Origin: Orbicella franksi
Taxonomy: Eukaryota
DNA: 64,000 nt
Assembly: GCA_964199315.1 (NCBI GenBank)
Contig: OZ116704.1
Coordinates: forward strand, 13,454,001 to 13,518,000
Direction: 5' to 3'
Shown here: positions 22,141 to 24,874 of the stretch, piece after piece
How the letters are laid out: every line of letters begins with the position of its first letter
Position numbering within the stretch: position 1 is the stretch's first letter
Position numbers and translations under genes: made by a program
Notes under the pieces: model-generated
What the model was told of the DNA's origin: nothing
The model's database searches: none
The model's input: the letters and a program-made list of their open reading frames with translations, nothing else

Positions 22141-24874
22141 GACGCCTGTTGGGCGTACACTCCGGCCATTTTAGGGGTATGTAGGTTTCGCGTTTGAGAT
22201 CGATGTTGGGGGGTTGATTTATGCCAAAATGATATGTATGTATGCTTTAGAATAAACAATGGGCTGTTGGGCATTCAGTTGGGCTATTTTAGGATTTGGG
22301 TTGGAATTGGAAGATAACTTTTTTTTTCTTGTTGGGCTCTTATATTTGGCTCTTCCTGTTCTGGATTATAAATGGGTGGGTGGGGCGGGGGTTTACCTGT
22401 GATGAACTGGTGTGGTACAGATAGCTGAGCAAAGTGCTGGCTTTATGATACACGTATAATTGCATTTTGAGTTTTCAATATGGTAAAGGAAATGTTTGGT
22501 TTGGACTAATTATAATATGTGATTACTGAAGTACATCTGACTAGGGGTTTTTCAATCCATAAATCTAATGAGGGTGCACATGCGCTGAACCATGAACCAC
22601 TCTGTTTTAGGTTTAGGTTGTGAAGGTAATTACAAAAGCTGCATAATTGTTAGTGTTTCTTTCCCTGCATTCCCCTAATAAAATACAAATGTTTTCTTAT
22701 TATTAACTAACAGTTTTATTTTCCCTATAGAAAATAAGTTAACATGGTGATAAGTAGAAGGCAGGAAACTATGTAAAATTGTCCGGGAACAACAACGAAA
22801 CAGATTCTACGAAAACTAAGAACGGTATAATAAGAATAATATTAGGAAGGCTAATATTGTTCTTGTATGGTGAAAATAAAATGGGCTTATTTTCCACTGT
22901 AAATCTCTTGTACAACATTAACTAAAACATGATAAAACGTAGTCAAGCATTCACCAAAATATTAATATTAAAACACTAACTAGTACATGGTAGTACTGTG
23001 TTTTGGCAATGTTTGAAAATGATTTTGTGACTGTGTATTTGGAACAACAATTATTAAGACCAGTATTGTAAATGTCATAATGTGTGGTCCAATATTATCT
23101 AAAGCATGCTAAACATTAACTACAACATGGTGGTACTTTTCAAAGTGATCTTGTGACTGTGTGAAGGTTCCACCATCAGAGTTTAAAATTTCTGACACAG
23201 CAAGAACTAAAACATGGTAAAACATTAACTAGAACACGGTAGTACTTTGTTTTTGCAACAATTTTTCAAAGTGATTTTGTCATTTTTGTGAAGGTTGTAT
23301 CACTTAAGACAACAATAAAGAGTTTATGAGGCCACTAAGTGTCTTGTCACTCCAAGTCTTTTACTGTGTTTTTACTTTCTTTGATGGTGACTCTTGTTCT
23401 TGGGAATCACCTTGTGTTTCTTTAGCTGGTGTAGCATGTTCAATTACTTTTCTGTCCAGATCCAGTCATAAGATGTACTTTGTATTGAGAAGGTTGATGA
23501 CATCTTGCTCTGTGGGCTTTATTTTGGGAGTTTGCCAATTAAAGAGATGCTGAATGACCTGAAAATTAATAAAATGTTGGGATTGAGAAATGAACTGAAA
23601 TGGTTCTTGTTATATATCATAATCTGGTGACAGTCAGTGTATGGTAATAAATCATCTTGGAAGGGGGTACTTATTGGAATAACAATATCAGACTACATTA
23701 GACTACATAAAGACATGGCTACACATTGCTGTCCAGCATTTTGACCAAACACTGCAACATTACCTTGACAATATGGTGCATGGAGTGTTTGAGAAGGAAC
23801 AACTGAAACTGGCCCTGGATTTTTTTCTATATCCGTACAAAGGCTTGATTGGCAATAGTTGACTCTGTGATTCAAATTCTTATAAACCCGTGATTCTGTT
23901 GAAATATCTTTACTTGATGCATTTGGAAATCTACCGTTTCCTTTCAGCTTAAACTTCAGGTTAGCAGTCTTACGATTTCCTCTGCGTGATGCTACAGCAA
24001 GATGAGATTTCATTCCCACGGAGAAAACTCGCTTTTTTCTTACTTTAACCTTATGACAAGATCTGCATTGAACGGTGTTATAACTGTAATCAACAGTTGA
24101 ACGAGCACTTCTAAATGTAGTATAAAGATGAATTCGAGATGACCGTGGTACATTCCTGATAATGTGTTTTTTAATTAACCTCCTTACTTTCCTGCTTTTT
24201 TGTAGAACACGAGTAAGCCGTTTCACTGAAATTCTGCTTGGTTCACGATCACATCGAACTATATGGCAGCTAGCCTTAACACGATGATAATAAATAAACT
24301 CAGCATATCGAGATCTACAGTCCTTTATTGAAATAGACTTGTCTTTGCCAAGTTCTGAGCAAGAATAATTACGGTCATTATTCACTTCTAACTTGTTTAC
24401 ATAGGAATTCTGGCATTCAGGTTCTGAGTGGTACATTTTAGTGCAATCGATTTTTGCGCAGGCATTCAGTGTACTTTCATAAGTGTGGCATTCAAGGTAT
24501 CTCACTGGCATTCAACTTTTATTTGTATTCGGCCGATATGAGGGCTAGAATGTTGCAGTGTTTGAGAAAAGCTACAGCACAACTCAAAATCATAACAAAG
24601 AAAACACAACACTTGAGCTTACCTCTACAAAAGTGTTCGCTCGCCCGTAAACAGTATTCCACCGATCTTTTCCGCCAGTACTTTTCCACAAGTTTTTCTA
24701 CGAGCGTGGCCTGTCACGTTGAGCACGTGATAGGTCCGTGGAAAAGCTCGCCAGCAAAGCGCCCTGGGACTACGTCACACTATTGCGCAAGAATGCAGAA
24801 TTCTGGCGACGACTACAGATCAAGCCGAATTTTCAACTCCTGCCCTGGCCCTGAGGGCCTGGGCCGGAGTAATT
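22141..24874 (-). mobile_element. Helentron/Helitron2-like rolling-circle element derivative, about 2.7 kb, carrying a 2A-protease ORF
   Basis: 5' end (minus): AATT-ACTCCGGCC forming a GC-rich hairpin with its own inverted copy (24836-24870). 3' end: matching subTIR (plus ACTCCGGCC at 22159-22167) followed by stem-loop ACGCC/GGCGT (22142-22156). Degenerate internal tandem repeats at about 22915-23300. No Rep/helicase left. Confidence 0.72.
23693..24511 (-). pseudogene. Truncated polyprotein ORF: basic N-terminal region, 2A-like peptide, start of a herpes-tegument-type (peptidase C76-like) cysteine protease
   Basis: 272 codons. DIEKNPGP at 23833-23810, followed by VSVVPSQTLHAPYCQGNVAVFGQNAGQQCVAMSLCSL, which matches the xxAxxxQ...FGxxAGxQC catalytic-Cys motif of herpesvirus large-tegument deubiquitinases. 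The ORF stops at a 10-bp tandem duplication (ATGTAGTCTA/ATGTAGTCTG). Confidence 0.72.

Follow-up and report, generated by a model that had tools for sequence, protein, structure and literature searches.

A 2A-like motif between a basic leader and a deubiquitinase in Helentron rolling-circle transposons of Orbicella franksi

Helentrons of Orbicella franksi, which are rolling-circle DNA transposons, encode a basic leader and a 2A/StopGo-like motif directly ahead of a deubiquitinase (DUB) and the transposase. We observed directly the architecture of these open reading frames (ORFs), a motif that is conserved and sits at one fixed point, VTD and OTU domains that replace each other behind it, and L-x-G-G or a separate start codon at its place in other families. 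Judging from these comparisons, the motif of this Helentron family is likely to be a processing site of the skipping type. The full-length ORF would then be translated as one polyprotein of basic leader, 2A-like motif, DUB, Rep, PIF1 helicase and endonuclease; the ribosome would skip the Gly-Pro bond at the conserved motif and thereby release the leader, and the product after skipping would be a transposase starting with the DUB. In the L-x-G-G families, the element's own DUB may carry out a self-cleavage instead. The purpose of either route might be a free N-terminus of the DUB-Rep-helicase protein (DUB-RepHel), a tuned dose of transposase, or both. What is apparently new is that a DNA transposon has a conserved leader-2A module for which a ubiquitin-tail-like site can be exchanged.

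The element in the window and its truncated ORF

The window (the whole stretch of DNA analysed, 64,000 nt) contains one such element on the reverse strand, with the following features.

22138..24870, (-): non-autonomous, internally deleted Helentron (HLE2) in a TT insertion context
24838..24870, (-): 5' subTIR ACTCCGGCC (24870-24862) followed by a GC-rich hairpin, from copy comparison
22138..22167, (-): 3' subTIR GGCCGGAGT (22167-22159), stem-loop (22142-22156) and terminal TTG^TT
23813..24511, (-): basic leader, 233 aa to the Gly of the 2A, from alignment and HMM
23810..23833, (-): 2A/StopGo-like octapeptide D-I-E-K-N-P-G/P (slash, Gly-Pro bond), preceded by L-C-T
23697..23812, (-): N-terminal fragment of a VTD (Herpes_teg_N, PF04843), Cys263 at 23725-23723, from the Pfam score of siblings
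23559..24622, (-): GT-AG intron (1064 nt) whose excision takes out the complete leader-2A-VTD ORF, joint seen in the RNA-run contigs X1 and X3
23361..23558, (-): 3' exon, frame of 65 codons with PSKKVKTQ before its stop; stop at codon 31 in the window copy

A DNA search found six related pieces of this element in the genome, namely the window, C2, C9, C13 and two C10 loci; the other copies share both or one of its ends and are mostly 97-99% identical to it, those on C10 being partial. The start TT^ACTCCGGCC is identical in 4/4 copies in which the anchor was found (window, C10, C13 and C9), and a common 3' end is present in the window, C2, C13, C9 and C10b copies, with differing flanks. In every copy read, TT lies next to each end with no sign of a longer target duplication, and the flanks are unrelated. 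Since copies at other loci have unrelated flanks, the element ends are fixed at 24870 and 22138. A sequence-only reading made earlier had set the limits at 22141-24874; the terminal features that it named (subTIRs, 5' hairpin and 3' stem-loop) are real, but its coordinates were off by 3-4 nt. Its assignment of the element as Helentron-like is supported by the subTIRs, the stem-loop and the TT context in the copies, and by relatives with Rep-helicase ORFs. The subTIRs are 9 bp long here and 11-15 bp in the available text of PMC4067079, and the 5' hairpin gave a DNA folding energy of -17.6 kcal/mol, a value that has no shuffle control. An autonomous parent with the same ends was not found in the assembly, where the RNA loose-end pattern had 0 matches; homologous elements with 36-41% amino acid identity over leader and VTD do carry Rep-helicase ORFs.

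The ORF at 23693-24511 (reverse strand, 272 aa) ends with SSLCTDIEKNPG before the Gly-Pro bond and PVSVVPSQTLHAPYCQGNVAVFGQNAGQQCVAMSLCSLM and a stop after it; in order, it comprises 226 aa, DIEKNPG/P, and then VSVVPSQTLHAPYCQGNVAVFGQNAGQQCVAMSLCSLM and the stop. The core D(V/I)ExNPG/P thus lies in frame inside one ORF in the window copy. At the DNA level, a degenerate D(I/V/M)ExNPGP pattern has a single match in the window (23811-23833) and 0 in 100 shuffles. Residues 1-233 contain 22% K+R and have a pI of ~10.1, in agreement with the earlier description of about 225 Arg/Lys-rich residues before the motif. Equally correct was the claim that the copy is cut about 37 aa after the 2A, as homology with longer siblings ends at ~23697, 37 aa past the Pro. 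This break is a deletion junction with short duplicated filler, and internal deletions differ between copies: the window and C2 copies break 37 aa past the Pro, and those on C13 and C10 continue through the whole domain. Repair of the truncation by a frameshift was ruled out, as the siblings reveal a deletion junction and the sequence downstream is not VTD.

Compared with the window copy, each sibling shows 0-1 synonymous and 6-7 non-synonymous differences, among them P232L in the motif of one copy and a stop in another. The excess of non-synonymous differences, the stop and the Pro-to-Leu change indicate that copies of the window subfamily are decaying and evolving neutrally. The window copy is a dead, decaying non-autonomous derivative which cannot make an active DUB or transposase.

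In the window copy, the catalytic Cys of the VTD is kept and the Asp-x-His is deleted. Both are present in siblings (QQC...FDSHARD on C10; FDFHARD on C13), so that intact copies possess the His/Asp partners of the Cys. Sibling copies scored against Herpes_teg_N with an E-value of 3e-10, and a profile of seven such domains matched 8ADD, a zebrafish Helentron VTD, with an E-value of 1.4e-14 (hmmsearch) and herpesvirus tegument proteins more weakly. Further modelling of the C10 sibling domain gave a pLDDT of 96.7, with Foldseek returning 8ADD (E-value 2.9e-15, TM 0.82) and M48 2J7Q (TM 0.79). The proposed herpesvirus-type DUB start is a VTD domain by Pfam, profile and fold of siblings; such DUBs in Helentrons were already published and assayed (PMC9741609, available text). 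In that text, cleavage of ubiquitin or NEDD8 is demonstrated for the zebrafish homologues only.

Splicing of the window subfamily

RNA contigs from two studies cover the spliced joint at depths of 372 and 218, compared with 19-33 over the ORF, depths that are summed over copies and come from contigs that may include DNA. The intron has a GTAAG donor and a TTTTCAG acceptor, and the first exon lacks an ATG. Because the ORF is spliced out and the first exon has no ATG, the dominant RNA of the subfamily does not encode the 2A ORF. The frame of the 3' exon is open in the C2, C13 and C10b copies, and this exon probably forms the end of a gene lying downstream; it has no homologue outside the subfamily of the window element. 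An RPA-like C-terminus was rejected for it, as the similarity was not significant (204/300 and 3/300 shuffles scored at least as high, and the second similarity was wrongly placed). RNA runs with element sequence include coral metagenomes. One contig from a poly(A) run spans from the host flank (25006) to the donor (24621-25006); the element may thus be exonised at the window locus.

Full-length relatives link the motif to DUB, Rep and helicase in one ORF

Searching the genome with a protein query yielded 65 matches. Two elements, C4 (2549 aa) and C3 (2924 aa), are single ORFs with the order leader-DIE(T/S)NPGP-VTD-DUF6570-Helitron_like_N (Rep)-helicase, in which the Cys lies 30 aa after the Asp of the motif. 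Their C-terminal endonuclease is assigned from reading of the sequence, with no Pfam score; the endonuclease was scored by Pfam in C9, P0014 and P0023. In C9 (2569 aa), the 2A precedes an OTU domain, and Rep, PIF1 and Exo_endo_phos are all scored. These data support the previously supposed linkage of the 2A-DUB segment with Rep, PIF1 helicase and endonuclease, which occur together in one ORF in full-length relatives. The nearest named homologues of the Rep are scleractinian.

Two NPGP motifs occur in a 2A-OTU-2A-OTU arrangement at L114:4671-8993 (-) on C14, and a second NPGP is located further upstream in the database proteins P0015 and P0016.

Conservation and distribution of the motif

In the 497-Mb genome the motif has 226 matches, compared with 0 for the reversed pattern. 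Among 60 of the 65 loci from the protein search, the strict motif occurs in 36, a one-mismatch form in 12 and neither in 12, counts that came from a query which included the motif, as did the database search with the motif in 28/29 proteins. Three tests were motif-blind, using a VTD-only profile, a Rep-only query and a neighbourhood count at Rep loci. The VTD-only profile matched 3138 of 1.84 billion representatives; among the 150 matches listed, 70 were assessable upstream, and the strict motif stood at the domain start in 37/70 (43/70 including loose forms). With the Rep-only query, 23 of the 120 proteins listed (of 996) contained the strict motif; all 25 NPGP in these 120 proteins lie within 500 aa of the N-terminus, and elsewhere, over 261,317 residues, there is none. 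At Rep loci on C1-C7, a strict 2A lies 0.5-15 kb upstream on the same strand in 26/58 and downstream or on the opposite strand in 0, a count that omits C8 onward, since the listed motif positions were 100 of 226, and also omits six additional fragments of loci already counted.

The residues of the motif are also strongly conserved. In 54 non-redundant NPGP-anchored sequences, D is present in 52, I/V in 54, E in 53 and Leu at three residues before the D in 47, and the residue preceding the D is G in 20, N in 19, T in 4, S in 3 and others in 8. Motif codons differ at silent sites between families. A chance match or neutral relic, the reading that we regard as very improbable, agrees with the neutral evolution of the window subfamily copies; it is already contradicted for the family by the 226 genomic matches against 0 in the control and by a position fixed across deeply diverged Rep clades, and holds only for the dead window copy.

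NPGP is absent from 95/120 of the listed Rep-anchored proteins, of which some are N-terminally incomplete and many have a genuine MP(R/K)(R/K)K start. The motif is dispensable and clade-restricted, and many fish, mollusc and echinoderm Helentrons are without it. In Rep trees, elements with the motif are spread over several deep clades, where they alternate with motif-less fish, mollusc and echinoderm elements, many motif-less proteins in this comparison being N-terminally incomplete. The trees also contain OTU-VTD swaps between sister lineages; since their alignments are short, several taxa are missing and the backbones are weak, they do not fix the direction of gain or loss.

By eye, ~25 of the first 30 genomic motif matches are Helentron-linked and 5 are non-LTR-like. 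The latter have a 2A before APE-type non-LTR ORFs, clearly at L127, L137 and L149 and probably at L144 and L147. Eight of the same 30 matches belong to an abundant non-autonomous family with the leader and LLLSGDIELNPGP, broken off ~20 aa later; its loci are L130, L131, L138, L140, L146, L148, L152, L156 and L192-L211. Protein P0168 from the nemertean Lineus longissimus has a short leader, NDVETNPGP and a VTD, indicating that the leader-2A-VTD module is not confined to cnidarians.

The 2A belongs to a leader module

The leader has a conserved core, RSR(Y/F)xxF...REPSRI...VP(R/K)SS. Its AlphaFold model is of low confidence (pTM 0.32), with a small helical core and, at moderate confidence, a helix ending at the motif. 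The leader has no Pfam match and no Atlas match, and its low-confidence model has no fold match. Its charge predicts binding to nucleic acid or to the nucleolus. An identical short leader type stands before VTD in some elements and before OTU in others. Moreover, an HMM of long VTD-type leaders from which the 2A was excluded matched 17/33 leaders with a 2A, each of which belongs to the OTU-side Rep set, and 0/95 motif-less N-termini at E below 1. The leader-2A precedes OTU as often as VTD, hence the 2A is not tied to the herpes-type domain. The sequence-only reading was right that a 2A is fused to a herpes-type DUB here, but the 2A belongs to the leader module and is found equally before OTU. 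A non-LTR origin of the leader, which the CR1 ancestry of the Helentron endonuclease makes attractive (PMC4067079, available text), was considered and is unproven; a short-leader query gave only Helentron-type contexts where these were readable.

L-x-G-G or an own start codon at the same junction

A search with the leader only recovered 30 loci, of which 15 have NPG(P/S), 8 from three families have L-x-G-G and 7 have nothing readable at the junction. The L-x-G-G forms are LSGG/M at 6 loci, LKGG/V at 1 and LTGG/M at 1, all before OTU. Elements of this genome with L-x-G-G share the 2A-type leader (HMM E-values 1e-15 to 3e-10), and the distance to the Cys loop of OTU is 31-36 aa from L-x-G-G and ~34 aa from NPG/P. 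One further VTD family has no leader, and its ORF opens at a Met just before the VTD. The 2A, L-x-G-G and own-Met solutions all lie inside one Rep clade (support 100). With L-x-G-G or an own Met at the position of the 2A, the junction looks like a processing site with interchangeable solutions. In database proteins without 2A, L-x-G-G has no consistent site, with 9 scattered matches in 270 proteins.

In its letters, L-x-G-G resembles the tail of ubiquitin, and di-glycine cleavage of polyproteins by viral DUBs is described in the available text of PMC9741609. Selection for a free DUB-RepHel N-terminus would be the simplest reading of these exchanges, with cleavages that we infer.

Does the motif cause skipping?

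The family mostly reads L-(S/C/A)-(G/N)-D, and the window copy has L-C-T-D with a polar upstream tract that lacks the Leu-rich run of classic 2As. According to the accessible part of bioRxiv 10.64898/2026.09.24.754024, N and I can take the place of the Gly before the Asp in F2A and P2A, and activity is generally lost with other changes. Because N is tolerated at this position, the G/N bias of the family fits skipping, and the T-type motif of the window is in doubt: Thr before the Asp characterises the window subfamily (4/54) and is absent from the tolerated substitutions named in the portion of that preprint available. Providence virus 2A2 ends in the identical octapeptide with Gly before it and has a listed activity of 0.94, and the EMCV 2A has His before the Asp and an activity of 0.58 (both PMC12338488, available text). 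The core motif alone is reported as insufficient and its upstream context as essential (PMC12846837, PMC3708506, available text), so that activity is not readable from sequence. In the accessible part of PMC3708506, two Nematostella non-LTR 2A-like peptides, both with E-to-S changes, were inactive when tested.

As an alternative, the motif may be mainly a translational brake that lowers transposase output by stalling or drop-off, with little clean re-start at the Pro. A high-throughput screen in which most retrotransposon 2A-like peptides reduced protein abundance (in 70% of cases for ORF1p and 59% for ORF2p; bioRxiv 10.64898/2026.06.17.732966, available text) and the non-canonical upstream tracts of many Helentron motifs speak for it. 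However, replacement by L-x-G-G at the identical position points to separation rather than dosage, and the G/N bias before the Asp agrees with the tolerance of skipping; we consider a mainly braking function unlikely, and braking and skipping effects can coexist. It is more improbable still that DxExNPGP is a conserved linker or a polyprotein protease site that does not recode translation. Such a site would accord with the protease-like L-x-G-G found at that spot in other families, but the motif precedes three unrelated folds in the genome (VTD, OTU and the APE of non-LTR elements), is missing from other VTD-Helentrons and so is not part of the fold, and has a conservation profile that matches StopGo position by position.

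With a skipping-type site as the preferred reading, a broader picture may be drawn, which we put forward tentatively and with slightly more doubt than confidence. Helentrons of anthozoans, and of some other invertebrates, might process their polyprotein like RNA viruses, the leader being cut off either by 2A skipping or, in related families, by the own DUB at L-x-G-G, with the two mechanisms swapped in evolution, the DUBs self-processing, and Helentrons accounting for most 2A motifs of the genome.

Comparison with known systems

In the available texts on Helentrons/HLE2 and their HINE/DINE-1 derivatives (Thomas et al. 2014, PMC4067079; HELIANO, PMC11417382), elements have subTIRs, a 3' stem-loop, the TT context and deletion derivatives like the window element, and HLE2 share the Rep-helicase-endonuclease ORF with DUF6570, OTU and Herpes_teg_N and have an RPA-like second ORF. 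HELIANO lists Herpes_teg_N in HLE2, and 2A terms have 0 matches in the accessible part of that paper (PMC11417382). The zebrafish Helentron VTDs DrT1 and DrT2 (Erven et al. 2022, PMC9741609, PDB 8ADD) have the same fold and the same Cys and Asp-x-His inside a transposase ORF. Helentron VTDs, including cnidarian ones, were published there with activity and structure, and '2A peptide' and 'ribosomal skipping' have 0 matches in its accessible text. A full-length relative from fish (Nerophis, P0076) is without NPGP.

APE-type non-LTR retrotransposons likewise encode a class A motif close to the start of one long ORF, before the enzymes, and some of their ORF2p carry DUB domains too (Odon et al. 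2013, PMC3708506; bioRxiv 10.64898/2026.06.17.732966; available texts). In contrast to these, the Helentron carrier is a rolling-circle DNA transposon in which the DUB comes next, the leaders (~65-470 aa) form a distinct family and L-x-G-G is an alternative. The core D(V/I)ExNPG/P is shared with the picornaviral and tetraviral class A StopGo/2A (F2A, P2A, EMCV and Providence virus 2A2), from which the present case differs in its cellular DNA element and, in the window clade, in the Thr before the Asp and an N-H-x-x-N-x-C upstream tract.

We found no report of a 2A in Helitrons in the literature outside subscription journals, theses and Repbase, and 'helitron' is absent from the main text of three recent 2A surveys. 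The available part of the PMC12338488 supplement lists cnidarian 2A-like peptides without element labels, some of which may be Helentron-derived. Recent papers, in the portions available, restrict StopGo to RNA viruses apart from sporadic occurrences in retrotransposons. A DNA-transposon reservoir with dozens of diverged G-, N- and T-type variants would widen this picture and offer a natural mutational series. Furthermore, the swap of 2A and L-x-G-G opens to testing the question of what Helentrons need OTU or VTD proteases for, with the prediction that their own polyprotein is one DUB substrate and that the leader must be released.

Other features of the window

A second Helentron derivative lies at 31400-34105 (-). 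Over 33373-34105 it shares 97% identity with the 5' part of the 2A-OTU family at C1:33.357 Mb (L180), and 32014-33198 holds an RPA-like ORF of 394 aa, alignable with the one found downstream of the C4 element. Read by eye from translations, a cluster of ETS-domain-like exons (7918-9156, 29559-30104 and 39348-40178) flanks the element at 22138-24870 on both sides. At 21330-21509 there is a near-perfect 180-bp palindrome whose 90-nt arms are 98% complementary, with no spacer. A tandem repeat of 81 bp, in which both strands have open frames, makes up a 618-aa ORF at 52659-54515.
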